Both the position numbers and the translations under genes were made by a program. From Nanoarchaeota archaeon SCGC AAA011-D5 (GTDB lineage Archaea > Nanobdellota > Nanobdellia > Pacearchaeales > GW2011-AR1), in NCBI GenBank assembly GCA_000405225.1, contig ASMP01000002.1:70073-134072 (forward strand): 64,000 bases of DNA, written 5' to 3'. Shown piece after piece: positions 29,981-51,540 of the stretch (positions within the stretch are counted from its first letter, which is position 1; every line of letters begins with the position of its first letter). Below the pieces are notes generated by a model. The model did not search any database. It worked only from the letters and a program-made list of their open reading frames with translations, and was not told the DNA's origin.

Positions 29981-30004
29981 TTTATAAATCTTGCTATTTT
30001 GTTA
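29981..30004 (-). promoter_or_regulatory. Shared 24-bp promoter (1 mismatch)
   Basis: TAACAAAATAGCAAGATTTATAAA vs consensus TAACAAAATAGAAAGATTTATAAA. Confidence 0.75.
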
Positions 30005-30063
30005 CTTTTTGAGAGTGAGAACACCTTAAAAAGGTTTATAAATAATCTCTTTATCTGCCGAAT

Positions 30064-30843
30064 ATGGTAAGAAAAATATCTGATAAAAAAACACAATTAA
30101 TGCAAGAATTGTATGATAAAGGTTTAGATGTTGTAGAAATAGCCAGAAGAGTGAATGTTTCTTATAGCACAGCATACGGTTATACAAAATTGAAACAAAG
30201 AATTAATCCGGAAACAGGAAGGAAGTTTGAATCAATAAGTCAATTAAGGGATTACCAAGCGAGACATAGGATTAATCCGGAAACAGGACAGGCGTTTGAA
30301 TCAAGAAGTCAATATGAGGAATATAGAGCGAGACATATGTTTAATCTGGAAACAGGACAGGCGTTTGAATCAAGAAGCCAATATGAGGAATATAGAGCGA
30401 GACATAGGATTAATCCGGAAACAAGAAAGGCGTTTGAATCAAGAAGCCAATTAATGGATTACCAAGCGAGACATAGGATTAATCCGGAAACAGCCCAGGC
30501 GTTTGAATCAAGAAGTCAATATGAGGAATATAGAGCAAGACATAGAATTAATCCAGAAACAGGACAGGCGTTTGAATCAAGAAGTCAATATGAGGAATAT
30601 TTAGCTGAGCAGAGACAAAGAAGGCTAAAAAATAAAAAGCTTAGCAATTTAATAAAAAAGAGATTAAAAAAGCTTAGGAAAAACCAGTCCTGGTTATCCA
30701 GAGAAGTAGATGTTTCAAAAGAAACTGCTTCTATGTATACACATGGAAAAAGTATACCAACTGAAGAAAGATTAGAAAGATTGTTTTCTGCACTTGGTGT
30801 CAAATGCAGAACCTTGGAGGATTTATTAGAGGAAAAACACTAA
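30064..30843 (+). CDS. HTH - 23-aa repeat array - XRE HTH DNA-binding protein
   Basis: N-terminal HTH, six RINPETGxxFESxSQ repeats, C-terminal NQSWLSREVDVSKETASMYTHG XRE motif. Confidence 0.8.
   Translation: MVRKISDKKTQLMQELYDKGLDVVEIARRVNVSYSTAYGYTKLKQRINPETGRKFESISQLRDYQARHRINPETGQAFESRSQYEEYRARHMFNLETGQAFESRSQYEEYRARHRINPETRKAFESRSQLMDYQARHRINPETAQAFESRSQYEEYRARHRINPETGQAFESRSQYEEYLAEQRQRRLKNKKLSNLIKKRLKKLRKNQSWLSREVDVSKETASMYTHGKSIPTEERLERLFSALGVKCRTLEDLLEEKH
30193..30606 (+). repeat. 69-bp coding tandem repeat x6
   Basis: Six units of AGGATTAATCCGGAAACAGGACAGGCGTTTGAATCAAGAAG-type sequence. Confidence 0.95.
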
Positions 30844-31733
30844 AAAATCAGATAGCTGGCCAAAATCCCAAGGAAAATTCCTGCTGTTATGAAAGGCATT
30901 GCAGGATAAAACTTCTTTTTTTCAGCTGCAAAGAAAAGGTATGCCAGGCCAATAGTTGCTCCTGCAATCACGAATAAGGCTGGAAAAATACCAAGAGTCT
31001 TAAGCATTACTCCTGCAGTAATTATCGGGAAAACAATGTCTCCTCCGCCAAGAATCGCGACATTTACCTTAATTTTCTTCTTTTTTAACTGAGACTCGGA
31101 AAGTGTCTTTTTCCACCTGCTTATCTGCTGCCTTACTTTTTCTGAAAAGTAAGGTACAAAAAATCCAGAAAATACCTTAAGAGTGTTTATTTGGTATTTT
31201 GCCATTTTTTGCATGATTCCGGAATGCCATACAGCCCACATGTCATATATGGATATCAAAACCAGAAGCGCCATCATTGTCCATATGTTGAGCAAAGGGA
31301 CAAAAACAGAGGCAATTCCAGGATATATCAAAAGCTCTGTGAAATTATGCATGAGGAAACTTCTTCCAGATATTTTTACGATTGCAAGAGGGATTGCTAT
31401 AACAAAAGCGACAATGGCTGTCTTTACAGGAAGGATTGCAATAAAAGATATGGAAAGTGCCAGGACAATCACGACGAAGAACCAGGCCTTTAATATGAAT
31501 TTCCATTTGAACTTGGTGAGAAAAAAGAGAAGAAATACCGCAATTATGAATGCGAAGATTATTCCTGAAAATAGGCTGGCAAATTCAGAAGTTGTTTCTG
31601 GCTGCGGCGGGTCAAGCCCAAAGGGAAGAACAACATTCTCAGGCATGTAATAGCTAACAACGTAAATGCCTATGGCTTGGGTAAGAAGAAACATAGCCAG
31701 GAGAAGGGCTGTGATTTTTAAGTTGTGTTTCAT
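30840..31733 (-). CDS. Presenilin/SPP-like (A22) intramembrane aspartyl protease
   Basis: SIYDMWAV, ILGGGDIVFP, YPAMPF, multiple TM helices. Confidence 0.9.
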   Translation of the reverse strand: MKHNLKITALLLAMFLLTQAIGIYVVSYYMPENVVLPFGLDPPQPETTSEFASLFSGIIFAFIIAVFLLFFLTKFKWKFILKAWFFVVIVLALSISFIAILPVKTAIVAFVIAIPLAIVKISGRSFLMHNFTELLIYPGIASVFVPLLNIWTMMALLVLISIYDMWAVWHSGIMQKMAKYQINTLKVFSGFFVPYFSEKVRQQISRWKKTLSESQLKKKKIKVNVAILGGGDIVFPIITAGVMLKTLGIFPALFVIAGATIGLAYLFFAAEKKKFYPAMPFITAGIFLGILASYLIF

Positions 31734-31869
31734 ATTTTATAATTGGGAAAAATAGCTTTTAAAGTTTTAGTGTAGATAACTTATTTAATATTCTAATGTC
31801 ACAATTTAATCTGGAATTTTTTATTTGTTAAAATCTTATCTGCTATGCACCTATCAAAATTTATCCAAT

Positions 31870-33756
31870 TCACCTCAACCTTAAAGTTTCCAGAACCCTT
31901 GGAACATTGGTTTCAACATGGTTCAATTTGTAAAGAGCAGAGGCAAGGTCAAGGCATTTGGAAACTTCTCCGTGATTTATCATTATTCTTTTTGGTTTTG
32001 GCCGCATGTTATTGAAGAAGCTGATTATCTCGTTTCTTCCTGCATGTGCAGACAGACCAGCTATAGTGTGGACTTCCAAGTTGATTTTAACGTCTTCCTC
32101 ATGGCCCTCAAACATCATCTTTGTTTCTTTAAGGCCTTCCTGCACCTGTCTTCCAAGGGAACCAACTCCCTGGTAACAGACAAAGACTACGGAATTTTTT
32201 TCATTTCCTGCAAATTCCCTGAAATATTCAACTGAAGCACCTCCAACTAACATCCCGGAAGTCGCAAGGACAACACAGGGACCGCCTTCAATGACTTTTC
32301 TTCTTTCCTGGGGGCTTCCTACACGGGAAAATATTTCTGAAACAAACGGGTTTTGGTCCTGGAATATCGAAGCCCTGACCTTGTTGCTCAAAAAATCCGG
32401 ATATGCTGTATGAATTGCGTTTATATCCCATATCATTCCGTCTATGTAAACAGGGATATTTTTCAGCTTGCCTTCTTTTATAGCATCCTCTAATATAAGC
32501 ATTGTTTCCTGCGCTCTTCCGAGACCAAGTTCGGGAATCAGGACCTTGCCTCCGCGGTTAATCGTTTTGTTGATTATTTCCAGCATTTTTTCTTCAGACT
32601 CTATCCTTGGAGGAAGGATGTCTGTCTTAGCTCCATAAGTTGCTTCTGTCAGGACAGATTCTATTCTCGGGAAAGATGTTACGGCAGGATCGAGAAGCCT
32701 TGTCCTCGCATACTTGTAATCTGCACTGTATAAGAAATTATGGAGTCCATTTCCGATGTTAAAGTGAACCATCGCACTTCCTAGTGCATGACCGGAATTG
32801 TAAAAAGTGATTCTTATATCAGGGGCTATGTCTGTAACCTCGTTAAAATTCAAAACAACAGTGTGTTTTACCATTTCCTTGATGTCCTTGGAGGTGTATA
32901 ACGGGGTTGCCGCCTGTTTGTAAGCAACGCCGATGAAATCCAGGCAGAGAAGCGCAGCCAGGTCCACCGTTGGAGATGTCATATACACAGGGCCTTTATA
33001 TCCCATCTTGTAAATGTAAGGAAGCAGGCCCACGTGGTCGAGATGAGCGTGGCTCAAGATAATTGCATCAAGATGTCTTATGTCGAATTCAGGTATATCG
33101 AAATAAGGGAATCTGTCTTTTCCGTGCGCAGCTACGTTTACCCCACAATCTAACAGGATTTTTGAATTGGGGGTCTGTAAGAGTAAACAACTGCGGCCAA
33201 CTTCTCTGGCGCTTCCCAGCAAGGTCAATCTTACCCACTCCTCAACCTTTTCGGGATTCCACCCCTCGTAGATTTTTTCTCCTATACTGTTCAGGAATTT
33301 TCTTCTGTAGTTGGTGTTTGCATACAGGACTTCACGGATGTTTTCGGTAATCTGGCTTTTAATGGCTGGAGACCTTTGAATCTGGGGTGTCCAAAGCGTG
33401 GTTTTCTTAATTTCATCAAGTGTACTTCCCTGCTTGCCTATCACCATTCCCGGCTTCTTTGCCTCGATTATTACTATGCTCCTGTGGAAATCAAAAATTA
33501 TATTTGTTATATCGGCTTCTGCCGGGACAATTTTTGTTATTTGTTCTTTAACTTTTTCCTGGTCTTGAAGTATTTTCTGGTCTGCACGAAGTTCTATTCT
33601 CTTTTTTATTTCATTAACGAGCTCCTTTATTTTGCCCTCCCCTTCCCTGAAAAAATTCTCGTTGTCTGTGTAGAGAACTATGTTTGCGCCTTCAAAATTA
33701 GCTTCTGTTATGCTGCTGTGCAACTTATCTTTTATATGTTTCAGAATGTCTGTCAT
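31870..33756 (-). CDS. Beta-CASP ribonuclease aCPSF1 (KH + MBL)
   Basis: KH IGKQG, SHAHLDH, GHALGS, SAHAG. Confidence 0.95.
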   Translation of the reverse strand: MTDILKHIKDKLHSSITEANFEGANIVLYTDNENFFREGEGKIKELVNEIKKRIELRADQKILQDQEKVKEQITKIVPAEADITNIIFDFHRSIVIIEAKKPGMVIGKQGSTLDEIKKTTLWTPQIQRSPAIKSQITENIREVLYANTNYRRKFLNSIGEKIYEGWNPEKVEEWVRLTLLGSAREVGRSCLLLQTPNSKILLDCGVNVAAHGKDRFPYFDIPEFDIRHLDAIILSHAHLDHVGLLPYIYKMGYKGPVYMTSPTVDLAALLCLDFIGVAYKQAATPLYTSKDIKEMVKHTVVLNFNEVTDIAPDIRITFYNSGHALGSAMVHFNIGNGLHNFLYSADYKYARTRLLDPAVTSFPRIESVLTEATYGAKTDILPPRIESEEKMLEIINKTINRGGKVLIPELGLGRAQETMLILEDAIKEGKLKNIPVYIDGMIWDINAIHTAYPDFLSNKVRASIFQDQNPFVSEIFSRVGSPQERRKVIEGGPCVVLATSGMLVGGASVEYFREFAGNEKNSVVFVCYQGVGSLGRQVQEGLKETKMMFEGHEEDVKINLEVHTIAGLSAHAGRNEIISFFNNMRPKPKRIMINHGEVSKCLDLASALYKLNHVETNVPRVLETLRLR

Positions 33757-33863
33757 TTTTCGTGTTTCATTTTAATGAGTTTATTAATTGCTTAGCAAAC
33801 TGCATCATCTTGTTATAACAAGAATATGTTGAATATTAAAATAAACAATGATTTTTTTATTAA

Positions 33864-34565
33864 TTACTTGTCTTTAAAGCTTCCTATTCTAGGACTTGCT
33901 TTTTTGTTTTCGTAACTTGGTGAGATTTCTTGTTCTATAACATGAGTTATTGTATCTTTTGTTATTGTGAAAACATCAATCCCATTTCCGCTTCCAACAT
34001 CCCTCTGTGTTGAGCTCTTGACTGCTTCAATGGCAAGTTCAACGCCTTCTTTTACAGACATTCCTTTTTTGTATTGCCTCTCAAGCAACCCAAGAACAAA
34101 GGGCATACCGGAACCAAAATTAGCATCATAGTCTTCAACCTGCATTGCAGTTCCTGCCGGTTCTATAGTATAAAGTTCTGCAGAACCATCTTCATTAAAT
34201 CCTGCCACCAAAGTTCCTACAATGCTCGGTATCATTGAAGGCTGCCTTATGCTTGAATATGTTACTGCGCCTACAAGGTTTGCAGCTTGTTTTACTGTTG
34301 GTCTTGATTTTGAATGAAGCTCTTTTAGTTTTAGATGAGCCGCAATAACCTTTTTTTGCATTTCAATATCGGAAGCATTTCCTGTTCCAGACATAACCAG
34401 GTAATCGTTTATCTGGACGGCTTTCAGAACATTTTTGCTCATGACAAGATTTCCAGCTGTTGATCTTCTGTCTGCAGCCATGACTATTCCGTCTTTGCAT
34501 ACAATTCCCAATATCGTTGTTCCCGTCTTAAGAATTGAATTTTTTAGTTCGTTATCCATTTCCAT
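33864..34565 (-). CDS. psmB: Proteasome subunit beta
   Basis: Propeptide then KTG/TTILGIVCKDGIVMAADRR, RDVGSG. Confidence 0.95.
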   Translation of the reverse strand: MEMDNELKNSILKTGTTILGIVCKDGIVMAADRRSTAGNLVMSKNVLKAVQINDYLVMSGTGNASDIEMQKKVIAAHLKLKELHSKSRPTVKQAANLVGAVTYSSIRQPSMIPSIVGTLVAGFNEDGSAELYTIEPAGTAMQVEDYDANFGSGMPFVLGLLERQYKKGMSVKEGVELAIEAVKSSTQRDVGSGNGIDVFTITKDTITHVIEQEISPSYENKKASPRIGSFKDK

Positions 34566-34751
34566 TTTTATTTTCCCACATCGTTCCCATCTTTCTTCAT
34601 ATTAATCTTTTTATCCTTCTTCACCCATCCCTTCAGTAAATCCTATTTCTTGCTCCATAGTGTAATTACCTCAGAATCAACCTATAAAATCTTGGTATTT
34701 CAGTTTTATAAAGTTTTCGTTCGAAAACTTTATTGGCTAATATAGATAAAA

Positions 34752-36812
34752 CTAAATCAGTCTCTCCTCAACTATTCTAGAGATGCCGTGCTCTTTGCGG
34801 AATCGTATCACGTTTTCTACAAAGCTCTCTATTTTCGGCTCATGACTGACAATTATAAGCTGCTTAACTTCCAGCTGCCGCAAAACATCGCGCATCTTAT
34901 CGAGTTGCTGCTCTGAAAATCCGTCGGTAGGCTCGTCGAGAATGACCAAATCCTTGGTCTTTATCCTGCTCATGAGTGAATTGACCACCCGGTTCAGCGA
35001 AAGCCTGTAGGCAAGGGCTATTGCTGTTCTTTCGCCCCCGGAAAGATAAGAGTAGTCTATCTCATAATCCTGATGATATATTATAGGAGTGAATTCCTCG
35101 TCCAGGCTCACATCAAAAACATCTGAGACAAGCATAGAGAACCATTCTGCAAACAACCTTGAGAACTCTGATTTCAGTCTCACCATTACATTTTTCTCTG
35201 TGAAAGAAATCAGAGAGACGAAGTTTCCTGAAAACCATTCTTCCAGTTTCGTTATGATTTCCATCTTTTCTCTTATTTCCTCTGTCTTTTTGATTCTGGC
35301 TTTTAAGTCTTCTATCTGGCGAGAGAATACTTCTATCTCTTTTTTCAGCTCTGCGACTTTTATCTCTGCTATTCTTTCCTGCTTTATTGCTTCTTTGAGT
35401 TCTTTGTCTTTCAATTCAAGAACAGTTTCAAATTTTTTCATTTCAAAAACACTCTTAGTGAGGTTTTCCGCGTGCTGCTCCAAAAGAACTATGTCTTTCC
35501 TGAGAATCTCGCTGGATTTTTCCATCTCCGCAAGCCCTGCTCTTTTGCCGTCTATTTCCTGAAATCTCATTTTTTGCATCCTTAACTCTGAAAGCCTTTT
35601 TTCTTCTGCAGAGATGTCTGCTTCTATTTTTTTCATATCTTCCAGGATCTTTTTCTTTTCAGAGGCCAGAGACTCTATTTTTTTCAGATTTTCCGTTGTT
35701 TCTGAATCAATGTTATTTAAGACATTTGTTTTGTAAACAGGGCCAACATTCTGCAGGCATATTGGGCATATCTCTATGTGTTTTAACTGCTCTTTTATCT
35801 TCCTGATGTCCTGGTTTTTTAGATTAAGGGAGTTTATCTGTGAGGTGATTTTTATGTTTTCCTCGTTCAGCTTTTCTTTTTCTGCTTTCTTGAACTGCAT
35901 CTTTAATTCTGCTTCCTTTATTTTGGTTTCATCAAATTTTAGGCTTTCCAGATCTTTTATCTGAATTTTCAGCTGCTCAAGGGTTTTTTCGTTATTCAAG
36001 AGGGTTTCTTTTTTGTTTGCAGAGACAATTTTTGTCTTTTCTATTTCCTGCTGCAGTTTTCTCCTTTCCTCTGTCTTTTTTAAGACCTCGTCTCTTTCTT
36101 CCTGTGCATGCCCCATTTCCTCTGTCCTTAGAAAGAGCTCTTTTTCTACAGAAGAAAGATTCAGATGTTTTCCTTCAAGTTCTTCTTCTTTGGAGAGAAG
36201 GGATTCTTTGTCTTCTTCAAGATTTGCAATCTGGCCTTCTTTCAGTCTTTTTTCCTCACGAAACTTTGAGGCAACTATAGACACATTCTCAATTATCACT
36301 TTGTATTTGTCTATCCCAAAAACATGCCTTAGAGAGTTTATCCTTGTTTCAGGATCTTCAAGAATAATCTGCTTCATCTCTTCCTGCGGAGTGTAAACTG
36401 TGAATTTGTAGAGGATATTCTGTTTTTTTGAAAACTCTTTAGGATAGCTTAGGATTTCGAGGACCTTGTCTTTCAGTTCTGTGACGGACAGCTCTTTTTT
36501 TCTCCCTTCTAGTGTTATAGAGCAGTAATCCTGAGAAACCGCTTTTCCCTTTTTCAGTTTCCTTTCAATTATAATCTCTTTTCCATCAACATCCAGACGG
36601 AGGACAACCCCTCCTTCACTGGTTCCGTTTCTCAGAAGAGCAGTTCCCCTCTGTCCTGGTTGCAGTCCAAAAAGCGCAAACTCTATCCCAAGGAGTATGG
36701 ATGTTTTTCCTGAGCCTATGTCTCCTGAAAGAAGCGTGGACCCCTCTGGAAAAGATACTTCCTGATTTTCATAACTTCTGATATTGTTGAGGATTATTTT
36801 TTTAATTATCAT
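34752..36812 (-). CDS. rad50: Rad50 / SMC-like ATPase
   Basis: GDIGSGKT, CPIC zinc hook, LSGGE, LDEPT; real start MIIKKI at 36812 (ORF track 36911). Confidence 0.95.
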   Translation of the reverse strand: MIIKKIILNNIRSYENQEVSFPEGSTLLSGDIGSGKTSILLGIEFALFGLQPGQRGTALLRNGTSEGGVVLRLDVDGKEIIIERKLKKGKAVSQDYCSITLEGRKKELSVTELKDKVLEILSYPKEFSKKQNILYKFTVYTPQEEMKQIILEDPETRINSLRHVFGIDKYKVIIENVSIVASKFREEKRLKEGQIANLEEDKESLLSKEEELEGKHLNLSSVEKELFLRTEEMGHAQEERDEVLKKTEERRKLQQEIEKTKIVSANKKETLLNNEKTLEQLKIQIKDLESLKFDETKIKEAELKMQFKKAEKEKLNEENIKITSQINSLNLKNQDIRKIKEQLKHIEICPICLQNVGPVYKTNVLNNIDSETTENLKKIESLASEKKKILEDMKKIEADISAEEKRLSELRMQKMRFQEIDGKRAGLAEMEKSSEILRKDIVLLEQHAENLTKSVFEMKKFETVLELKDKELKEAIKQERIAEIKVAELKKEIEVFSRQIEDLKARIKKTEEIREKMEIITKLEEWFSGNFVSLISFTEKNVMVRLKSEFSRLFAEWFSMLVSDVFDVSLDEEFTPIIYHQDYEIDYSYLSGGERTAIALAYRLSLNRVVNSLMSRIKTKDLVILDEPTDGFSEQQLDKMRDVLRQLEVKQLIIVSHEPKIESFVENVIRFRKEHGISRIVEERLI

Positions 36813-36819
36813 TGCCCAA

Positions 36820-37980
36820 TCATATAGCAAAGATTTTTTTAGTTTCATCCAAAAGCCTGTTGGTAAAACTTTCCGTGGTTTCACCTTCCTGTTTTTCAGT
36901 GGACAGTGCACTCATTATTTGGGGGATAAACTTGTTGAATGCCGCAGGATTTTGTTCGGAATATTTTTTTATTGACTCCTCCTCTATATTTTCTGTTTCG
37001 GGGATTTCAGTCGCAATCTCTGCCTCTTTTGTCTTCAAATCGTGGGTATTTCGCAGCAAAAAAAAAGCTCCTTTTTTCTTTGCGGTTTCCTCTATCTTGG
37101 CAAATTTTATATCAGAGTGTTTTCCGCTTTCCAGAATCCCGCGTATCCTCAGAAGAACTATCTTGTCTTCCAGATCTTGCTTTTCAAGTTCGGAGAGAAT
37201 CTGCTCTGTTGCCCTTATGGCGTTTTTTACCTCTATATCAAAAGAAACCACGTTCTTGATTTTCAGGTCGATTCTTTTTAAGGGTTTTTCAAGACTGGAA
37301 TCCACGATGTAAAATCTTCCGTGCTGCAAATCTTCCAGTTCCTGGAAATTATTCGGAAATATTGGACCGGGATAAACAAAATTTTCATATTGAAAATCAA
37401 TGTGCAGGTGTCCAAGGGCATAATAGTCTGCCTTGGGGACTTTTGAAATTTCAAGAGCGTCTATGGGAAGGTTCCCTTTCGCCTTGTCTATAGTCGTATG
37501 CAGCAGAAAGATTTTGAATAAGCCAGGGGCTTCGTCAAACTGAGCTCTTCTCAAATCCCCCACTTCAAGTCCAGAGGTTTTTCCAGGATATCCGTAGAGT
37601 GCAACCCCTTTATGAATCGTCGGACTCAATATTATCCTATCATTTTTTTCTTCAAACACGGCGACGTTTTTGCAAAAACCTGCCTTCTCCAAAACATCGA
37701 GGAAAGTTTTTCCAGAAACAGAATAGTCGTGGCTTCCTGCAATTAAAAAACACGGGATTCCTGCTTCTTTTAGTTTTCTGAATTCCGCAAAACTTTCTTT
37801 AAGGACGTCTATTGGCGGGAAAGCTGCATCAAAAAGATCTCCTGCAATAACCACGAATTCTACTTTCTCCCCGATGCATATTTCAAGAGCCTTTTTGAAG
37901 GACTCGAGATTAAGATCCTGCAGAGGCTGTTGTTTCCATCCTCCGAGATGTACGTCAGCTATATGGGCAAATTTTACCAT
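36820..37980 (-). CDS. mre11: Mre11 nuclease
   Basis: ADVHLG, AGDLFD, GSHD, LLHT, LGHLH. Confidence 0.95.
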   Translation of the reverse strand: MVKFAHIADVHLGGWKQQPLQDLNLESFKKALEICIGEKVEFVVIAGDLFDAAFPPIDVLKESFAEFRKLKEAGIPCFLIAGSHDYSVSGKTFLDVLEKAGFCKNVAVFEEKNDRIILSPTIHKGVALYGYPGKTSGLEVGDLRRAQFDEAPGLFKIFLLHTTIDKAKGNLPIDALEISKVPKADYYALGHLHIDFQYENFVYPGPIFPNNFQELEDLQHGRFYIVDSSLEKPLKRIDLKIKNVVSFDIEVKNAIRATEQILSELEKQDLEDKIVLLRIRGILESGKHSDIKFAKIEETAKKKGAFFLLRNTHDLKTKEAEIATEIPETENIEEESIKKYSEQNPAAFNKFIPQIMSALSTEKQEGETTESFTNRLLDETKKIFAI

Positions 37981-38073: not shown

Positions 38074-38384
38074 AGCTAAGGCCATTCCAAAAGCACAGCT
38101 GTTCTCGTTGTTGCCATGGTTGTTCGAGTTAACATTCAACCTGTTGTTGCCCAAGTTCCTGTTGGAATTCAGACTCGCAACCCAGCTATGTAGCCAGTTT
38201 ATCTCATGAAATTTTTATTTTTCATGTCAGGAATCTTGCCTGCACAGAGCAAAATTTAATTTGCACACCATCGCTTCAAGTTTCGCAAATATTAGATATA
38301 AAAACTACTATTTGTCGCGATTGAATTTTATGACTTAAAATAAACCTGAATAATGCCTTAATAAACTGGCGTGTGGCCTTAGCT
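38074..38384 (-). ncRNA. Putative DGR template RNA (structured 5' domain + TR), bounded by long-range pairing
   Basis: 11-bp IR 38374-38384/38074-38084 encloses TR; nested 10-bp IR 38361-38370/38193-38202; hairpin 38205-38226; no avd ORF. Confidence 0.6.
38087..38183 (-). repeat. DGR template repeat (TR)
   Basis: 97 nt, 30 adenines on minus strand (12 AAY codons in target frame); differs from VR only at adenines. Confidence 0.97.
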
Positions 38385-38447
38385 CAAGCTTTTTTTAAGC
38401 TCTGCTAAGACAAATAAATAAGTAAAAACAGGTTTAAATTTTTTGCG

Positions 38448-38464
38448 AACCAGCTTCGCTGGTT
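38448..38464 (-). other. DGR target-recognition hairpin (7-bp stem, GAA loop)
   Basis: AACCAGC-GAA-GCTGGTT immediately after the target stop codon. Confidence 0.85.
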
Positions 38465-39165
38465 TACTTCAACACCCCAAAAGCACAGCAGTACTCGTCG
38501 CTGCCACGGTCGTACGAGACAACATCCAACCCGTCGTCGCCCAAGTCCCCGTCGGAACCCAGACCCGCAACCCCTGCTTCTGGTGTTTTCAAACTTGATA
38601 AATCTGGAACCCAAATGTGAGCTTTTTTATCTGGGTGTTTTGATGCAAGTTCTGCAAGTTTTTCAGCTCCTTCTTCACCACCAGCCCATGCAACAAAGTA
38701 AGGATGCTTTCCTACTTCTTTCCAGCTAACAGGACCTTGCCTAAGATGTTCAAAAGAAACTTGCGCACGGCTTTCGGCTAATCTTTTTAGCAAACCACCT
38801 CTATCAACAACAGAATTCTCATCAAATTCAGGATTATCTATAAAATGAGCAATTCTTTCTTTTGGAAGGTAAAGAATTCCTGTAAATCCTCTGAAATATC
38901 TATCTTTCATAATCTGATTAACTTCTCTTGCTTGAGGTTCATTGCCACTAAAATATTCATGAACAAAAGAAACTAATTCCGAAGTTGTTGGTTCTCTATA
39001 ACCAGTTGGATTTTCAGAAGAACCTCTTATTCGCCTTAAAAGATTCAGGGAATTTGCAGGGCCATAAAACGGATGCACCGCTGTTAAAATTTTTCCCTTG
39101 TGTGGAAAATCCATTTCTGTTCTTCCAACTCTTATTCTTTGTCTTGTGTCAGATTGAGTTTCCAT
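38464..39165 (-). CDS. DGR variable (target) protein, CLec-like
   Basis: C-terminal VR encodes VAGLGSDGDLGDDGLDVVSYDRGSDEYCCAFG. Confidence 0.92.
   Translation of the reverse strand: METQSDTRQRIRVGRTEMDFPHKGKILTAVHPFYGPANSLNLLRRIRGSSENPTGYREPTTSELVSFVHEYFSGNEPQAREVNQIMKDRYFRGFTGILYLPKERIAHFIDNPEFDENSVVDRGGLLKRLAESRAQVSFEHLRQGPVSWKEVGKHPYFVAWAGGEEGAEKLAELASKHPDKKAHIWVPDLSSLKTPEAGVAGLGSDGDLGDDGLDVVSYDRGSDEYCCAFGVLK
38477..38573 (-). repeat. DGR variable repeat (VR)
   Basis: Aligns to TR at offset 390: 19 mismatches (15 A>G, 4 A>T), none at the 67 non-A positions. Confidence 0.97.
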
Positions 39166-39186: not shown

Positions 39187-39210
39187 TTTATAAATCTTTC
39201 TATTTTGTTA
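39187..39210 (-). promoter_or_regulatory. Shared 24-bp promoter of DGR target
   Basis: TAACAAAATAGAAAGATTTATAAA, identical to 41556-41579 and 46902-46925. Confidence 0.8.
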
Positions 39211-39243
39211 TTCTTTTTAAGAGGTAACAAAAGAGGAGTGATT

Positions 39244-41555: not shown

Positions 41556-41579
41556 TAACAAAATAGAAAGATTTATAAA
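41556..41579 (+). promoter_or_regulatory. Shared 24-bp promoter
   Basis: TAACAAAATAGAAAGATTTATAAA, 21 nt upstream of ATG 41601. Confidence 0.8.
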
Positions 41580-41600: not shown

Positions 41601-41981
41601 ATGGAAAGTTTAGAAGATATTGCTGGTATTGATTGGTCTAAAGCATTGCCCAAAGGCAGAAATCCAAATGAGACAAGAAGGATGGTATTATACGAAATAA
41701 GAAGAGGAATCAAAGGGAGATGGGGATTTTTAAGGAACCTCACCAAAACAGAAGATGAAGTTATTCAAATTATTATGTCAACAAGAATAACAAATGATAC
41801 TGAAGCTGCTAAAAAAGTTATAAGATATTTAGAGAACACTAATTATGTTCATTATAGTGATGGTTCTGGTGATATCTCTCTTTGTAATGATGGATATTAT
41901 AATTTAAAAAGAGTTCAGGATAGAAAGGAAAATATAAGATTTAAAATCCTGGATCTTCATTTGCCTACCCATTGGGACTGA
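41601..41981 (+). CDS. Hypothetical protein
   Basis: 126-aa ORF with own promoter, inserted between pop5 and psmA. Confidence 0.6.
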   Translation: MESLEDIAGIDWSKALPKGRNPNETRRMVLYEIRRGIKGRWGFLRNLTKTEDEVIQIIMSTRITNDTEAAKKVIRYLENTNYVHYSDGSGDISLCNDGYYNLKRVQDRKENIRFKILDLHLPTHWD

Positions 41982-42919: not shown

Positions 42920-42930
42920 TTATTATTAAT

Positions 42931-43614: not shown

Positions 43615-43838
43615 GTAGTCCTGAGATGTTTTATTTAGAAATGCTTGCGAACATTGAAACTCCGGCTCTTTCCGGAGGATTTGGTGTTAAAGAGAATCAT
43701 CAGATTTACCATGATTACTGTCAATTAAGAAACTCTGCTAAAGATTTATTAAGCAACCCCCAAGATACAGAAGCAAGAAGAAAGTTATCAGAATTAATAA
43801 TTAAATTAGAATTATTAGAATTAACAAAAATAAATTGA
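43611..43838 (+). CDS. Hypothetical protein
   Basis: 75-aa ORF overlapping the SBDS stop (ATGA). Confidence 0.5.
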   Translation: MSSPEMFYLEMLANIETPALSGGFGVKENHQIYHDYCQLRNSAKDLLSNPQDTEARRKLSELIIKLELLELTKIN

Positions 43839-43840
43839 AA

Positions 43841-44512: not shown

Positions 44513-44514
44513 GA

Positions 44515-45584: not shown

Positions 45585-45596
45585 AGACAATAAAAA

Positions 45597-46397
45597 ATGG
45601 AAACATCAAAAATAACAGGAGAGAGAATTGCAGAATACTTAAAACAAGGAAAGAGATTTGACGGAAGGAAGCCTGAGGAGTTCAGGAAGATAGAGATAGA
45701 GACAGGAGTCTCAAAAAAGGCAGAAGGCTCTGCAAGAGTCAAGATAGGAAAGACAGAAGTCATAGTCGGCGTTAAAATGGATGTCATGGAACCTTATCCT
45801 GATTCTGCAGATAGGGGAAATCTGATAGTTTCTGCCGAGCTTCTTCCTTTAAGCTCTGAAAGATTCGAGAGCGGGCCTCCAAGATTCCCTGCCATAGAAA
45901 TAGGAAGGCTTACAGACAGGGCGATAAGAGAAAGCAAATTCATACAGATGGAAAAACTATGCATAAAAGAAGGGGAAAAAGTATGGGCTATTTATATAGA
46001 CATATACTCTTTGAATGACGACGGAAATCTGATGGATGCGGCAGAAATCGGGGCAGTTGCTGCCCTTAAAACAGCAAGGATGCCAAAATATGACGAAGAA
46101 ACAGAAAGGGTTGTCTATGGAGAGTTCACAGACAAGAAAATACCCCTGCAAAAAGAGCCTCCTATAATGATAACTGCCTACAAGATAGGGGATTCGTGGA
46201 TAGTTGATCCGACTCTTGAAGAAGAGGATATCTCACAGGTAAAAGTAAGCATTGGAGCAACACCCGAGGGAATAATCTCCTCTATACAGAAAGGGGAAGC
46301 CAGTGAGATAAGCATAGAGGAATTTGAAGACGTGATAGAGCTTACAGAAGAAATCAGAAAGAAAGTTTTTTCAAACATAAAAAATTCGCTGGAGTAA
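45597..46397 (+). CDS. rrp42: Exosome subunit Rrp42
   Basis: RFDGRKPEEFR, AEGSA, DDGNLMDA, VDPTLEEE. Confidence 0.95.
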   Translation: METSKITGERIAEYLKQGKRFDGRKPEEFRKIEIETGVSKKAEGSARVKIGKTEVIVGVKMDVMEPYPDSADRGNLIVSAELLPLSSERFESGPPRFPAIEIGRLTDRAIRESKFIQMEKLCIKEGEKVWAIYIDIYSLNDDGNLMDAAEIGAVAALKTARMPKYDEETERVVYGEFTDKKIPLQKEPPIMITAYKIGDSWIVDPTLEEEDISQVKVSIGATPEGIISSIQKGEASEISIEEFEDVIELTEEIRKKVFSNIKNSLE

Positions 46398-46398
46398 A

Positions 46399-46776
46399 AT
46401 GCAACAGGAAAAGGAAAAATTCAGCAAATATGAAATCGCGAGGATTCTTGGAGCAAGGGCCCTTCAGATAGCGATGAATGCCCCTTTGCTGATAAAATTA
46501 AGCAAAGAAGACCTGGAAAAAGTAAAATATGATGCCCTAAAAATAGCTGAAATTGAATTTGAATCGGGAGTTCTTCCAATCTCTGTCAAAAAACCTTTCC
46601 CGGAAAGAAAAGAAGACGTTCTAAGGAGACCAAAGGAGCAGAAGATAAGCGACGAGAAAATCGAGGAAAAAGAAGCTGCAGAAGAAGGGGAGATTGCAAA
46701 ACAGGGAGAAATTATGGGCCTTGTAAACCCGGAGGAAGAAACAGAAGAGGAAGTTGTGGGGGGAGAAAGTGAGTGA
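46399..46776 (+). CDS. rpoK: RNA polymerase subunit K (Rpo6) with acidic tail
   Basis: FSKYEIARILGARALQIAMNAP. Confidence 0.95.
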   Translation: MQQEKEKFSKYEIARILGARALQIAMNAPLLIKLSKEDLEKVKYDALKIAEIEFESGVLPISVKKPFPERKEDVLRRPKEQKISDEKIEEKEAAEEGEIAKQGEIMGLVNPEEETEEEVVGGESE

Positions 46777-46835
46777 ACTCGTCCAAGCGTGGCCGAGTTA
46801 GAGGAAACTCGTCCTAGCTATGCCGAATTAGAGGA
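46776..46835. repeat. REP-like unit, two tandem 30-bp copies
   Basis: AACTCGTCCAAGCGTGGCCGAGTTAGAGGA / AACTCGTCCTAGCTATGCCGAATTAGAGGA. Confidence 0.7.
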
Positions 46836-46901
46836 AGTTGCGGATGAAGGAATCGGGGAAGGGTAGTTTTTTCTTACAGATTAGTTGTTATTATAGAAAG
46901 G

Positions 46902-46925
46902 TAACAAAATAGAAAGATTTATAAA
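46902..46925 (+). promoter_or_regulatory. Shared 24-bp promoter
   Basis: TAACAAAATAGAAAGATTTATAAA, 21 nt upstream of ATG 46947. Confidence 0.8.
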
Positions 46926-46946
46926 GTTGGAATTTCTGGGAAAAAT

Positions 46947-47189
46947 ATGGGAAAAACAGATGTAAGACCAAAATTAACGGATTTAATTCCTTTTTACGGA
47001 TGGACCGATTATGTTGGGAGAACTACATTTGGTACTTGGGAAGAAGTTCCAATAAGAAATCAAATAAAAAGAGGGGTTATCATATTAGCTCAGGTAGCCT
47101 ATAATAGCTATATTGGAGCAGAGATTTTAAATATGTTAGAAGGAAAACCTTCTTTCACATACAAACTTCTTGAAAAGATTCTTAATTAA
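46947..47189 (+). CDS. Hypothetical protein
   Basis: 80-aa ORF with own promoter between rpoK and eno. Confidence 0.6.
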   Translation: MGKTDVRPKLTDLIPFYGWTDYVGRTTFGTWEEVPIRNQIKRGVIILAQVAYNSYIGAEILNMLEGKPSFTYKLLEKILN

Positions 47190-47278
47190 TTCTAGAATCC
47201 TCAAAGACTAGATGTAAGAAATTCTTTAATAATCAAAATCATCAGTAAATTTATATACTGAAATATTTTTTCTAATTA

Positions 47279-48448
47279 ATGGTCGTTATAAAAAGCGTTT
47301 CTGCCAAATCTATTTTTGATTCAAGAAAAGAGAGAACGATCCTTGTTTCCATAATGACAAACGTTGGAGAATTCAGAGCAAGCGCACCAAACGGAAAATC
47401 CAGGGGAAAACACGAACAGAGTCCATATAAGAAAGATTTAAAGGGGGACATAAAAACCCTGAAACAATTCAGCAGATACTTTTCTGAGGACGAGATAGAA
47501 AAATTTTGGGATTTGAGAAGAATAGAGGACATAGTTGAAGGGCATGTCGGGGCAAATACCCTTTTTGCTTTGGAATCAGCTATCTTAAAGGCCCTTGCAA
47601 GGGAAAAGAAAAAAGAAGTCTGGCAGCTGATTAATCCAAACGCAAAAAAATTCCCGAGATTAATCGGAAATTGCATCGGCGGGGGAAAACACTCCAGAGC
47701 TTCTTCAATTACAGGAAAGAAGCCCGATTTTCAGGAATTTTTACTTATACCAAAAGCAAATTCTGTTAAGGATTCTTTTAAGATAAACAAAGAAACAAAA
47801 AAAGAAATTTGGTATGCACTTAAAAAAGGGGATGGAAAATTTCAGGGCAAAAAAAATGATGAGGACGCGTGGCAGACTTCCCTTAATGAAAAAGAAGTTC
47901 TGGATATTTTAAGAAATTTTGGGATTGCTTTAGGGATGGATGTGGCGGCTTCAGGTTTTTACAAAAGAAAGAAATACCATTACCAGAATCCGGTTCTTCA
48001 GAGGACAAAAGAAGAGCAATTTTCCTATATTTCAAACCTGATAAAAAATTTTTCGCTTTTTTATATTGAAGATCCTTTTGAAGAAGAGGATTTTGAGGGC
48101 TTTTCCAGGCTTTTAAAAAAATATCCGAATTTCTTGATAGTGGGAGATGATCTCACCGTCACTAATGGAAAAAGACTTGGGAGAGCTATAGGAGAAAAAA
48201 GCATAAATGCAATAATTGTCAAGCCAAACCAAAACGGTTCTTTGATCCAGGTCATGGACATATGCGGGTCTGCAAAAAAACATGGCATAAAGATTGTTTT
48301 TTCCCACAGGAGCGGAGAAACGATGGAAAACATTCTCGCCGACCTGGCTTTCGGATTTCAGGCTGATTTCTTCAAGTGTGGTATAACGGGAAAGGAACGC
48401 GAGGCGAAAATAAAACGTCTTATAGAGATAGAAAAGAAAATTCGATAA
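47279..48448 (+). CDS. eno: Enolase (short, divergent)
   Basis: DSRKE, GMDVAAS, IEDPF, VGDDLTVTN, VKPNQ, SHRSGET. Confidence 0.92.
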   Translation: MVVIKSVSAKSIFDSRKERTILVSIMTNVGEFRASAPNGKSRGKHEQSPYKKDLKGDIKTLKQFSRYFSEDEIEKFWDLRRIEDIVEGHVGANTLFALESAILKALAREKKKEVWQLINPNAKKFPRLIGNCIGGGKHSRASSITGKKPDFQEFLLIPKANSVKDSFKINKETKKEIWYALKKGDGKFQGKKNDEDAWQTSLNEKEVLDILRNFGIALGMDVAASGFYKRKKYHYQNPVLQRTKEEQFSYISNLIKNFSLFYIEDPFEEEDFEGFSRLLKKYPNFLIVGDDLTVTNGKRLGRAIGEKSINAIIVKPNQNGSLIQVMDICGSAKKHGIKIVFSHRSGETMENILADLAFGFQADFFKCGITGKEREAKIKRLIEIEKKIR

Positions 48449-48523
48449 GTTACTGCTTCGTCCAAGCTTGGTCAAATCAGAGATTGATTGAGATTGAGAA
48501 GAAGATTAGATAATCTTAAAGAA

Positions 48524-49276
48524 TTATTTTTTAGCTATTTTCCAAATAAGTTTAAAATATTCTATGAAACTTTTAGCAATTTCTTTGCTCTTAATGACGA
48601 AAAACATTGGTTCTTCTGAAAAAACTGATATAATTGATGAATTTCCGTAGATGTTAATTGAAACAAAGGATGAAAATGGTATATATTTAACCTCACAAAA
48701 TTTTGATTTTTCTATAAATGGCATAGTGCCCTTTGCATCTTCTCCAAAAATAAATTTTCTTTTTAGCTTTAAATTGTCCTTCTTACCTTCTAATCTTTCA
48801 AAGAAGTTGTATACATATTTTTCGTATTCTTTTGTTGCTCCAATAACATAATTTATTTCTTTAGGATTCTCAATAAGAAACTCTGTTTCTTCATTAAAAA
48901 CAGATATCATACCTTTCATTCCCATATAGATTTCAGCTTGTTGCTTCTCTTTAACAGAATCAAGCCTTTTTGTTAATTTTGGAAGAATTTTCTCTATCTC
49001 ATTTTTTCTTTTTATGATTTCTTTTTCTTGCTCTTCCAATAATTCCATTATTCTTTTTGGATTTGCAGCATTCCAATGTGCAATATTTCTTATTATTATA
49101 TGACTAACCAAACCTTTTTTCTCTAATCTCTTTAAAATTTTATATGTTTTAGATGTAGATACACTCGATTTTTCCACTATAGGTCCTGTAGTAGATTGAC
49201 CTAAATCAAGTAAGGCTAAATATACTTTTGCTTCTCCTCTTGTTAGACCAATTTTCTCTAATATCTCTGGCTCCAT
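48524..49276 (-). CDS. TrmB-family transcriptional regulator
   Basis: IGLTRGEAKVYLALLDLG...KTYKILKRLEKKGLV. Confidence 0.85.
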   Translation of the reverse strand: MEPEILEKIGLTRGEAKVYLALLDLGQSTTGPIVEKSSVSTSKTYKILKRLEKKGLVSHIIIRNIAHWNAANPKRIMELLEEQEKEIIKRKNEIEKILPKLTKRLDSVKEKQQAEIYMGMKGMISVFNEETEFLIENPKEINYVIGATKEYEKYVYNFFERLEGKKDNLKLKRKFIFGEDAKGTMPFIEKSKFCEVKYIPFSSFVSINIYGNSSIISVFSEEPMFFVIKSKEIAKSFIEYFKLIWKIAKK

Positions 49277-49375
49277 GTTATCTTTATCTTTTATTTCTTT
49301 TTAAATCTTTTCTATCTTTGTTCACCCTGGGGGAACATAATATTTATATAGCTGTCATTTTCACATAAAATTATC

Positions 49376-49921
49376 ATGAAATCACTAAAAGGATTAATTA
49401 AGAGAAAGTTTGGAGCAATAGCACTTGCCTCACTCATAGGTTTAAGTGGATGTCAAAGACTACCTCAAAAAAGTGATATTGTTTATGATAAAGAAATAAA
49501 CTGGCAAAGAGTGGTTTATATTAAAGGTAATCATAAGTTTATACCTCCTACTCCAGACCAAATAAGAATATATCAAGATGGCAGGCTGGAAAAAGTTATG
49601 GAAGATTTTGATGGGGATGGTACAATAGTAAATAATAATAGGGATAGTTATACAGAGAGAGTAAATGATAATGCATGGGTTAGATATACACAACTTTATG
49701 TAACAGAACCATATAAACCATATGAATCTTATGATGAAATAGCAACAGGAAAAGAGCCAAAAGTACAATGGGTTTTAGGTCCACAGAGATATTATAGAGG
49801 AAACCAATATAATGAAAAATTACAAAAAGCAGGAGAACTTTATAAAAAGTTAAAGAGTGAAATTCAAAGCAAACTTGAATCAAAAAAAATTCAAAAGTTG
49901 ATTTCTAAAATAAGCTATTAA
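49376..49921 (+). CDS. Putative lipoprotein / secreted protein
   Basis: Basic N-terminus, hydrophobic stretch, LSGC lipobox-like motif. Confidence 0.55.
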   Translation: MKSLKGLIKRKFGAIALASLIGLSGCQRLPQKSDIVYDKEINWQRVVYIKGNHKFIPPTPDQIRIYQDGRLEKVMEDFDGDGTIVNNNRDSYTERVNDNAWVRYTQLYVTEPYKPYESYDEIATGKEPKVQWVLGPQRYYRGNQYNEKLQKAGELYKKLKSEIQSKLESKKIQKLISKISY

Positions 49922-49955
49922 AAACCTTTAAAAACTAAATTCTCTGTGAATTTCT

Positions 49956-50816
49956 ATGCCAAGGAAAAAGAAAGAATCAAAAGAAGATATTGCTGAAGAG
50001 TCGGAAGAACAGCCGGAAGAGGCTGAATCAGAATCTTCGGATGAGAAAATCAAAGAACTTGAGGAAAAAAAGAAAGTTCTTGCAGAAAAGGTGAAGAAAC
50101 TCAAGGAAAAAATTTCTGCTAAAGAGGTAAGCACAGAGGAACTTAAGGAAAAAATCAAAGCTAAAAAAAGAACAGATATGCTTGTTCCTCTAGAGGAGTA
50201 TGTCAAGGCAGGAATTTATCTCGGAACAAGGGTTGTGACACCCAACATGAAGCCTTTTGTTTACAGGAGAAGGGCAGATGGCCTTGCAATCTTTAATACA
50301 GACACTATAGACGAGAAATTAAAAGAAGGGGTGGAATTCTTGTCAAGGTTTGCTCCAGAAGACGTAATTCTTGTCTGCAAAAGGCAGGCAGGATGGCGAG
50401 CTGCAGAAAAGTTTTCCGAATTGACAGGGGTAAAAGCTTTCACAAAAAAGTATCCTGCAGGAATTCTTACCAATAGCCAGCTCCATGATTTTTTTGAAAA
50501 TGAGCTTACTATAATCACAGACCAATGGGTTGACAAAAACGCACTTAACGATACTTTAAATGTCCGTAAGAAAGTTCTCATGATCTGCGACACAAACAAT
50601 TTCTCCCAAGGAGCAGACCAAATAATAATAGGAAACAACAAAAGCCCTAAAAGTCTCGGGCTTATTTTTTATATTTTGGCCAGGGGATATTGCAAGGCCC
50701 GCGGCCTTAACACGGAGAAAATTCCTGATTTGGAGTGGTGGACGGGCGAGGAAGGGGAAACGGTTGAAAAAAGAACTCTGATAAAACCAGAGCCTGTCGC
50801 AGAATTTGGCGTATAA
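49956..50816 (+). CDS. rps2: 30S ribosomal protein uS2 with charged N-terminal extension
   Basis: YVKAGIYLGT, RRRADGL, YPAG, DTNN, GNNKSPKSL. Confidence 0.92.
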   Translation: MPRKKKESKEDIAEESEEQPEEAESESSDEKIKELEEKKKVLAEKVKKLKEKISAKEVSTEELKEKIKAKKRTDMLVPLEEYVKAGIYLGTRVVTPNMKPFVYRRRADGLAIFNTDTIDEKLKEGVEFLSRFAPEDVILVCKRQAGWRAAEKFSELTGVKAFTKKYPAGILTNSQLHDFFENELTIITDQWVDKNALNDTLNVRKKVLMICDTNNFSQGADQIIIGNNKSPKSLGLIFYILARGYCKARGLNTEKIPDLEWWTGEEGETVEKRTLIKPEPVAEFGV

Positions 50817-51174
50817 GATTATGGAGAAAAGAACCAAAAATTATTCAAGAAAAACAAAGCCTAAATTTAAAAAATCCCTGAATATTTTTCTTGGTGTTGT
50901 TATTTTTGTTGCCCTTATAGGCTCTGCATTTGCAATAAGCATTCTTTTTGGTGTTGCCTTCATCATAGCTTTCTCCCTGGCGGTTTATACAGGAGAACTG
51001 AAGAAAAAACCGTGGAAACCAATGGCAATATTCATCGGTGCAGTACTGATAAGGCTTGCCCTTAAGCAATATCTTGACCCTGTCCTTGCATCAAAAACAC
51101 TTCTGGACCTGGCTGTTTCAGCGCTGATATTTTTATCAATACTGATTTTCGGATGGAAAATCAAGAAGAGTTAA
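50806..51174 (+). CDS. Hypothetical membrane protein
   Basis: Four hydrophobic helices; overlaps the rps2 end. Confidence 0.6.
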   Translation: MAYKIMEKRTKNYSRKTKPKFKKSLNIFLGVVIFVALIGSAFAISILFGVAFIIAFSLAVYTGELKKKPWKPMAIFIGAVLIRLALKQYLDPVLASKTLLDLAVSALIFLSILIFGWKIKKS

Positions 51175-51540
51175 GGGAAGAATTTTTTATATGAAATTAT
51201 AAAGTAGTAACAAAAGAGAAAGATTTAAATAGTAGAAGATTAGTAAAAATTTATGGAAAAAAATTTGGTAGATCTTGTTATAATTGGTAATGCTTTTGTT
51301 TTAGGTGGTGCTTTAAGTCAGTTAATGCTTTATGGTCTACACAAAGCAAGACTTTCAGAAAGAGAATTTACAACTGGTAAAGAAGAAACAAGAAAGTATG
51401 TAGAAAGAGTTCAAGAACTAAATAAATCTTCTCTAAGAAGAATAGTTTTTTATGGTGCGAATCTAGCAAATAGAAAATATTTAGAAAGTATTAAATAACA
51501 ATTCATATTCAACGTAAGTTGATTTCATAATTAATTCTTC
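51175..51540 (+). mobile_element. Inverted-repeat-bounded gene cassette, copy 1 (intergenic)
   Basis: Left end 51175-51197 identical to 58628-58650; right end 51503-51540 is 37/38 identical to 59102-59139. Confidence 0.8.
51253..51498 (+). CDS. Cassette cargo: hypothetical protein with N-terminal hydrophobic helix
   Basis: 81 aa; preceded by shared-promoter variant 51208-51231. Confidence 0.6.
   Translation: MEKNLVDLVIIGNAFVLGGALSQLMLYGLHKARLSEREFTTGKEETRKYVERVQELNKSSLRRIVFYGANLANRKYLESIK

Follow-up and report, generated by a model that had tools for sequence, protein, structure and literature searches.

Among the transcriptional systems described so far, those closest to the one reported here are the TrmB regulons of Euryarchaeota, i.e., the TGM/TrmBL1-Tgr regulon of Thermococcales, that of the Pyrococcus/Thermococcus TrmB, with sites of the form TACT-N3-AGTA, and that of Halobacterium VNG1451C, with sites of the form TACT-N7-8-GAGTA. 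At the characterised sites, binding upstream of the BRE (transcription factor B recognition element) and TATA box gives activation, and binding downstream gives repression (PMC4158304). The upstream activating sequence promoters of Ptr2 in Methanocaldococcus and of TFB-RF1 in Pyrococcus are also related, with a conserved site just 5' of the BRE, where an activator can recruit TBP/TFB (PMC4158304). Here, we analyze a 64,000-nt stretch of Nanoarchaeota archaeon SCGC AAA011-D5 (contig ASMP01000002.1, positions 70,073 to 134,072; the whole stretch is called the window), in which the 24-mer TAACAAAATAGAAAGATTTATAAA stands in front of scattered genes. This 24-mer is very probably the core of a promoter class, and comparison with related genomes leads us to favor, with moderate confidence, the reading that the class defines a factor-dependent regulon. 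As in the upstream activating sequence promoters, the conserved site lies just 5' of the BRE; those are known from a few promoters in single species, whereas here one composite sequence is found across an order-level clade, and the factor is only predicted. As far as the searchable literature shows, no regulon of these DPANN lineages has been described, and searching it with the motif string and for DPANN promoter motifs gave nothing relevant.

Exact copies of the 24-mer were found at 39187-39210 (-), 41556-41579 (+), and 46902-46925 (+), and further copies with one mismatch at 29981-30004 (-) and with three mismatches at 51208-51231 (+). Numbered along the window, copies 1 to 5 end 24, 21, 21, 21, and 21 nt before an ATG, and each ATG opens an open reading frame (ORF). 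These five positions, their mismatch counts, and the 21-24 nt spacing had been given by the original prediction, made from the letters of this stretch; all were reproduced, and 100 dinucleotide-preserving shuffles contained no match. The alignment of the five copies showed no conserved block outside the 24-mer, the flanks sharing scattered near-upstream positions and an ATGG(A/G)A start; the flanks of copies 1 to 4 are unrelated sequences, for copies 2 to 4 right up to the element. When all TTTAWAWA boxes of the window were scored over the 16 nt 5' of the TATA box, the mismatch spectrum was bimodal, with 0-1 mismatches at five sites, 3-4 at two, and 7-14 in the bulk, indicating that the motif is a discrete promoter class and not the tail of the generic promoter. 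Within the 24-mer, the TATA box occupies positions 17-24 (TTTATAAA), and a purine-rich BRE (AGAAAGA) stands directly 5' of it at positions ~10-16. At the 116 further loci found outside the window, 68 of the 93 downstream ORFs begin 21-24 nt past the end of the motif. The center of TTTAWAWA is placed 25.5 nt before the conserved ATG, or before the 5' end of a small RNA (sRNA), at +22, and a T/A dinucleotide occupies the predicted start; a TATA center ~26 nt from this dinucleotide agrees with the rule for archaea, by which the TATA box sits at -26/-27 and the initiator is pyrimidine-purine (PMC4158304). This geometry, with an ATG or an sRNA 5' end at +22, fits the promoter reading given originally. 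We infer that the A of the ATG, 22 nt past the motif, is the transcription start, which would yield leaderless mRNAs.

The GTDB species representatives were scanned with a pattern that admits the variants seen in the window. Matches were obtained in at least 116 contigs, nearly all of them from metagenome-assembled genomes (MAGs) of Pacearchaeota, Woesearchaeota, and Nanoarchaeota; the few contigs with another label include L046 (loci of other genomes are given as L numbers), whose archaeal 23S rRNA resembles that of the window. By chance, ~0.07 matches were expected in the whole collection at uniform composition, and at most ~3 if all the genomes were as A+T-rich as those with matches. None of 2.9 million viral contigs contained the pattern. 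The conservation of the class was read from a logo of 115 distinct sites, outside the positions imposed by the search, and showed T at -16 and -13, A at -11, and AGTAG at -4 to 0; position -10 was C or T in 114 of the 115 sites, and position -9 was T in 106. With up to one mismatch, TGTTAC, the reverse complement of the GTAACA of the motif, was detected at -18 or -15 in 28 of 119 sites, compared with 2 and 5 in the controls; AGT was present at -4 in 50 of the 119, and A(C/T)T at -11 in 66%. The class-specific element continues ~18 nt 5' of the 24-mer, often with dyad symmetry (TGTTAC...GTAACA or ACT...AGTA), and 118 generic leaderless promoters of relatives, chosen independently of the motif, showed a weak BRE (A13, A14) and no information 5' of position 9. 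The conservation originally placed ~10 bp beyond the BRE/TATA does extend past these boxes, and its length had been set too short, since cross-species conservation runs ~27 bp further. In the window, copy 1 is preceded by TGTTCTCACT-N7-AG, so that the unit spans 29981-30022 (-); the inverted repeat TGTTAC lies upstream of copy 2 at 39222-39227, and ATT-N4-AGTAA precedes copy 3.

Copy 1 drives an operon (29956 to 27741, -) that encodes an 82-aa orphan (29708-29956), a 252-aa protein (28948-29706), the TrmB-family protein TrmB1 (28161-28967; Pfam PF01978 and part of PF11495), and an FHA-domain protein (27741-28127). Copy 2 stands before the target gene of a diversity-generating retroelement (DGR), and copy 3 before a 126-aa orphan (41601-41981) inserted between the genes for RNase P Pop5 and proteasome alpha, a position where relatives L197 and L198 have no gene. 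Copy 4 serves an 80-aa orphan (46947-47189) between RpoK and enolase, and copy 5 an 81-aa ORF (51253-51498); the 126-, 80-, and 81-aa orphans gave no significant Pfam match above the curated cut-off. The description of all downstream genes as accessory held for four of the five copies and failed for copy 1, whose operon carries a clade-conserved TrmB regulator.

Beyond the window, 93 downstream proteins formed 87 sequence clusters, with two DGR target families, a structured sRNA, and the TrmB1 operon as recurrent features. Pfam family rows numbered 23 for 88 motif-driven proteins and 82 for 88 length-matched neighbors from the same loci, and the neighbors include ribosomal proteins, aminoacyl-tRNA synthetases, an EF-Tu-type GTPase, and Rad51; within the motif-driven set, no ribosomal protein, synthetase, or rRNA promoter was found. 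The motif is thus not equally frequent upstream of housekeeping genes, the pattern that the original prediction had named as speaking against it. To judge from the genes that it precedes, the promoter probably marks one co-regulated set of accessory genes. A hydrophobic segment was present in 9 of the 88 motif-driven proteins and in 20 of the 88 neighbors, indicating that the products are mostly soluble and leaving the surface role once proposed for them without support. A viral or proviral promoter set was considered and rejected, with the motif absent from viral contigs and the PHROG matches being isolated singletons; phage and defense readings were likewise dropped, as PHROGs and PADLOC gave only isolated matches among 88 downstream proteins.

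The gene behind copy 2 compares with the DPANN DGRs that carry the RT-16 RNA family (Rfam RF03019), with which it shares the adenine-only differences between variable region (VR) and template region (TR) and the RT-16 RNA; in relatives the order is target, RT-16, and reverse transcriptase (RT). The cassette of the window (38087-39165, -) contains the target gene (38464-39165, 233 aa; VR 38477-38573), the RT-16 RNA (38185-38410), and the TR (38087-38183), and the Mre11 gene starts 106 nt past the TR (listed span 36820-37980). TR and VR were aligned over 101 nt with 21 mismatches, all at TR adenines (17 A to G and 4 A to T). No RT gene was detected in the window by tblastn with the RTs of four relatives, and the RT for this DGR may lie elsewhere in the genome; the RT directly follows the cassette in L069, L073, L106, and L205, and L203 and L204 have the target with no adjacent RT. 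The window's cassette differs from the known DPANN DGRs in having no RT gene, and the new point is the use of one promoter class before targets of two unrelated families: the 233-aa family is under the motif in the window, L069, and L030, and the 252-aa family in L014, L073, and L106, where a DGR RT comes next; L073 and L106 also gave an RT-16 RNA match. Where relatives have the RT directly after the target and no other promoter was identified, the motif promoter probably also serves the TR RNA and the RT. Five homologues of this DGR target were sampled independently, and the promoter class precedes the three that share at least 61% identity with it, in one case with a single mismatch and the canonical 21-nt spacing; the promoters orthologous to copy 2 in L203, L204, and L205 retain GTTAC and the motif. 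That the motif drives a DGR target, as originally stated, is supported both by the 21 adenine-only mismatches and by the promoter class at three of the five homologues. The 252-aa protein of the copy 1 operon was also considered as a second target of the window's TR and rejected: its 3' end is mismatched to the TR with no adenine-specific pattern, and it is a mere homologue of DGR targets elsewhere.

The sRNA is ~72 nt long and structured, with eight covarying pairs in its stem, and begins with AUCACCUC exactly at +22 after the motif in 11 of 11 loci. It was found in L006, L008, L016, L021, L026, L037, L050, L060, L065, L078 (7514-7585), L093, and L100; it matched no Rfam family, and none was found in the window. 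The single-stranded AUCACCUC at its 5' end also occurs, unchanged, within the 3' end of the 16S rRNA encoded in the window (GGAUCACCUCCU, ~56911-56922), which suggests that it mimics the anti-Shine-Dalgarno sequence.

The strongest lead to a regulator comes from TrmB1, whose operon is under the motif in the window, L010, L063, and L072. A sample of 80 metagenomic loci was fetched through the TrmB1 protein and not through the motif (the best 80, with 56-83% identity), and 67 of these have at least 400 nt of upstream sequence. The loci are syntenic, with Rad50, proteasome beta, aCPSF1, and a membrane protein on one side, then the promoter, variable small ORFs, and TrmB1, followed by the CCA-adding enzyme. 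In 54 of the 80 loci, a promoter of the class stands upstream of TrmB1 and on its strand, with the consensus aTGTtctcACT-N4-AAAAG-(T/C)AACA-N8-9-AAGATTTATAAA-N21/22-ATG, in which TGT (-18 to -16) and ACT (-11 to -9) occur in more than 90% of the TrmB1 promoters. A best match to the 24-mer with at most five mismatches was obtained in 27 of 50 upstream regions of TrmB1; the opposite strand gave 7 of 50, and the downstream regions 2 of 45. TACT/AGTA words near the predicted start numbered 0.72 per TrmB1 promoter, compared with 0.29 in the set seeded with the motif, and an extra TACT/AGTA word at +8 to +34 was present in 71% of the promoters directly before TrmB1 and in 24% of other copies.

In the window, all three TrmB-family genes have motif-type promoters: besides copy 1, the degenerate copy TTTCAAAATAGACAGATTTATATA at 4109-4132 (-) is the promoter of the paralogue at 3337-4080, and the degenerate copy GAACAAAGATAGAAAAGATTTAAAAA at 49298-49323 (-) lies 21 nt before the ATG of the paralogue at 48524-49276; both are absent from the original prediction. 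Between the TATA box and the ATG of the first of these paralogues stands the perfect palindrome AGTAGTA-N9-TACTACT (4084-4106); for the divergent gene 4140-4655, this palindrome is placed upstream of the TATA box. The element lies 5' of the BRE in all copies, and the extra sites 3' of the TATA box at TrmB genes have what appears to be a TrmB-like placement. TrmB1 retains the Tyr-Asp pair of DNA contacts. Dyads of the types ACT(-11 to -9)...AGTA and TGTTAC...GTAACA are enriched, with varying registers and with a spacing unlike that of all characterised TrmB sites. No homologues of the other two paralogues were present among the fetched loci. It may be added that 64 kb of a small genome hold three TrmB-family regulators (3337-4080, 28161-28967, and 48524-49276). 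Of the two regulator types that had been proposed for the motif, TrmB gained support from the 54 of 80 loci and from the promoters of the three paralogues, and XRE did not, being a neighbor only in the window and in one close relative.

Collectively, the synteny and promoter link, the placement of TACT/AGTA words, the known behavior of TrmB proteins, and the Tyr-Asp pair favor a TrmB-type regulon with autoregulation. In the mechanism that we propose, positions 1-9 and the ~18 nt further 5' would constitute an operator-like element, (A)GTAACA, often with an inverted TGTTAC or an ACT...AGTA dyad. A dimeric regulator would bind this element just 5' of the BRE and recruit or stabilize TBP/TFB, and would in this way co-regulate the orphan small proteins, the DGR target operons (in relatives, the whole DGR), the sRNA, and its own operon. 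The likeliest regulator would be the conserved TrmB-family protein at 28161-28967, possibly together with its two paralogues, although the assignment of the factor to TrmB1 or a paralogue is tentative, at somewhat under an even chance on the present sequence comparisons. The extra TACT/AGTA sites between the TATA box and the start codon would then mediate autorepression of the TrmB genes.

Measured against the euryarchaeal TrmB regulons, this promoter class is alike in having what appears to be a palindromic element with ACT/AGTA-type half-sites next to the BRE/TATA, in placing the site 5' of the BRE at targets and between TATA box and start at the regulator's own gene, and in keeping a TrmB-family gene under its own promoter class. 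In contrast to the characterised regulons, its half-sites and spacing differ from every known site, so the element was not filed as a TrmB operator and counts as a candidate for one. The element is, moreover, fused to a fixed BRE/TATA, and the targets are orphan proteins, DGR targets, and an sRNA instead of genes of sugar and central metabolism. Conservation of a 24-45 nt block over more than 100 species of an order-level clade, this choice of targets, and an association with mini-cassettes set the class apart from the known cases.

Several observations weigh against the regulon reading. The upstream element is heterogeneous, with TGTTAC in two registers and AGT at -4 absent from the TrmB1 promoters, and positions 4-9 (CAAAAT) are accounted for by neither the BRE nor the dyad. 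The TrmB-family genes may belong to the regulon without being its master, and two further regulator types are also found downstream of motif copies. At the TrmB1 locus, the dyad can be read as two opposed head-to-head promoters, because the divergent promoter, GAACACCTTAAAAAGGTTTATAAA at 30019-30042 (+), is itself motif-like; it serves the XRE-type gene 30064-30843, and the same opposed arrangement was found in L125, L166, and L174. The class is missing at the two most distant of the five DGR-target homologues, and the motif is missing from 15-21 kb of syntenic sequence in relatives whose enolase is 74-86% identical, which together indicate a fast turnover of membership in the set. Finally, copying would produce an exact identity of 24 nt amid unrelated flanks more easily than selection acting only on a binding site.

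This last point leads to the explanation that survives best beside the regulon, namely that a short promoter segment, alone or with a small ORF in an inverted-repeat mini-cassette, has been copied or moved within and between related genomes, so that identity reflects common descent. We regard this as possible, though not probable, and it is compatible with a regulon. Copy 5 lies in such a unit (51175-51549, +), formed by the promoter and the 81-aa ORF; another ORF, at 58628-59149 within the 23S rRNA gene (57384-61139), is framed by the same 22-nt 5' flank and ~55-nt 3' flank, which in the motif-bearing unit form ~20-nt imperfect terminal inverted repeats. The promoter of the 23S unit resembles a decayed motif, and L046 has a motif-driven ORF at the same 23S site. 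The insertion at 58628-59149 is itself ~520 nt long and contains a promoter of its own and an ORF of 130 aa, whose product includes a hydrophobic segment. The 80-aa ORF of copy 4 is immediately followed by the cassette end TTAATTCTAGAATCCTCA (47186-47203, +), which also closes small-ORF units in L202 (twice), in L015 (within 23S, motif-driven), and in L197 (within 16S, with a plain promoter). A second type of shell has the ends CTAGAATT and AATTCTAG. The 5' cassette word CAGGAAAGACTAGAA has only weak matches in the window, with 2-3 mismatches, and the 46.9-kb unit keeps a degenerate remnant of it.

The turnover around enolase points in the same direction. Relatives with 74-86% identical enolase share the core gene order and have a small ORF with a plain promoter, and no motif, between RpoK and enolase. 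The 97%-identical relative L202 has different genes around enolase. The interval from enolase to S2, which in the window is taken up by a TrmB paralogue and a 181-aa gene, contains a motif-driven 70-aa orphan in L202; from -22 to +24 (46 nt), the promoter of this orphan equals the 46.9-kb copy, and beyond that stretch the two diverge. The 87 clusters among the 93 downstream proteins also speak for this explanation. Against copying as the main cause, shells also occur with plain promoters (in the window's 23S and in L197), which shows that shell and motif are separable; copies share either the promoter or the shell alone, homology over a whole unit length was not seen, and the flanks of copies 2-4 are unrelated up to the element. 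Among the matches listed, only 2 of the 116 seeded loci lie within rRNA genes. No transposase or integrase domain was detected among downstream or neighboring proteins, and no viral copy was found. At TrmB1 and the DGR targets, the promoter has stayed with its gene across lineages with 50-80% protein identity and conserved synteny, which argues for vertical inheritance under selection.

The original prediction had offered a regulon and a promoter module traveling with inserted genes as alternatives. The traveling module is supported by the 51.2-kb copy in its inverted-repeat cassette, the shared 3' end of the 46.9-kb unit, and the turnover in L202, and is weakened by the 5' end of the 46.9-kb unit, a mere degenerate remnant; the regulon is supported by vertical retention at the syntenic TrmB1 locus and at the DGR targets and by the operator-like dyad, and lost its surface-protein part. 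The two do not exclude each other, and each has evidence. On our reading, a clade-wide regulon promoter makes units of promoter and ORF functionally portable, and copying and selection would act together.

The units resemble known gene cassettes with conserved ends, such as integron cassettes, miniature inverted-repeat transposable element (MITE)-like elements, and the ORF-bearing rRNA introns of archaea, in being small, single-ORF, and bounded by inverted repeats, and in occupying hot spots between core genes and inside rRNA genes with a content that differs between close relatives. Integron cassettes are mostly promoterless. Here, in contrast, each unit has its own promoter, and no integrase, attC-like site, or homing-endonuclease domain was found, the last having been looked for in the ORF-bearing rRNA insertions (23S of the window, L015, and L046; 16S of L197).

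A constitutive consensus promoter, i.e., an optimal surface for the basal machinery of the clade (TBP, TFB, and perhaps TFE or a second TFB) kept for very strong expression with no gene-specific regulator, is unlikely. Its 3' half is indeed a textbook BRE/TATA, generic promoters of relatives weakly favor the same bases at positions 10-14, and the promoter is used by an sRNA; small RNAs are typically highly expressed. However, highly expressed housekeeping genes do without the motif, and the genes of the CCA-adding enzyme, a GTPase, and aCPSF1 use a second promoter family, AATTAATAAACTATTTT. The conserved part also extends ~45 bp 5' of the TATA box, past the known TFB contacts, the dyad symmetry and the position-dependent extra sites at regulator genes go unexplained by a basal promoter, and no TFB or TBP gene in the window hints at a paralogue-specific class. 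The second family is unrelated to the 24-mer; it is exact at 650-666, 7390-7406, and 26429-26445, and has three mismatches at 7961, 21481, 24175, 33773 (-), and 53529, giving eight matches in total, a number reached by no shuffle, and it also precedes genes of a type IV pilus-like locus. Least probable by far is an att-like target for cassette insertion with an incidental promoter role: the element does stand at the 5' edge of variable units between conserved genes, and dyad symmetry is also typical of recombinase sites, but it has a fixed spacing to the ATG or sRNA 5' end and a canonical BRE/TATA, no recombinase is linked to it, and the cassette ends consist of other sequences.

The regulon reading is set in a window that is archaeal, its 16S rRNA, tRNA-Ala, and 23S rRNA being matched by archaeal models. 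Its nearest relatives are MAGs of Pacearchaeota and Woesearchaeota ("Nanoarchaeota"), with a protein identity of 96-98% to L079, and motif-driven genes are interleaved with core genes for Rad50/Mre11, RNase J, Pop5, proteasome alpha, SBDS, exosome subunits, RpoK, enolase, and S2. Other features of the window were recorded in passing. Six tandem repeats of 69 nt (23 aa), INPETGQAFESRSQYEEYRARHR, lie at 30123-30674 in the gene of the XRE-type double helix-turn-helix protein (30064-30843), for which L079, a close relative, is the only case of conservation. A SpoIIE-type phosphatase (53945-54892) is listed beside the FHA protein of the TrmB1 operon, and a PIN/AbrB-like toxin-antitoxin pair lies at 51666-52186. 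Another variable hot spot is found between Rad50 and proteasome beta, with ~2 kb in L079 (4438-6547) and 186 nt in the window (34565-34752). Tandem repeats of 153 nt at 1895-2479 (three overlapping 279-nt copies, 87-89% identity) fall within a 625-aa ORF (1232-3109) with no Pfam match. Just 3' of the 23S rRNA gene, at 61092-62656, there are repeated segments of 47-126 nt (85-98% identity), spaced 791 and 680 nt apart, that bracket small ORFs at 61222-61831 and 61952-62359. Directly 3' of the RpoK stop codon, the hairpin AACUCG-N12-CGAGUU occurs in two tandem copies (46777-46839), and it is also present at 5-38 and 12814-12847; the hairpin after RpoK in relatives L197 and L200 reads AAUCG...CGAUU, a compensatory change. 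The sequence of this hairpin continues the RpoK frame past the TGA stop (TRPSVAELEE repeats), and a related loop sequence was found 3' of the enolase gene.

DPANN archaea are uncultivated, and the function of most of their genes is unknown. In these organisms, a promoter recognizable by sequence labels a set of probably co-regulated orphan genes in more than 100 species and ties DGR hypermutation to that set. The class nominates a specific conserved regulator and gives direct access to the question of which unknown genes work together, perhaps in interaction with a host. In addition, it exposes promoter-bearing mini-cassettes common to intergenic hot spots and rRNA gene insertions, and it offers future genetic work on these archaea a strong, portable promoter that is already at hand. 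A broader and more speculative view, which we think rather unlikely as a whole, is that of a clade-wide accessory-gene programme in which one TrmB-type regulator and one portable 45-nt promoter would jointly switch on DGR diversification (target, TR RNA, and RT), the sRNA, with its 5' copy of the anti-Shine-Dalgarno end of 16S rRNA, and rapidly exchanged small soluble orphans, many of them on inverted-repeat mini-cassettes that also live in rRNA genes. If true, it would constitute a promoter-equipped cassette system that operates with no integrase.

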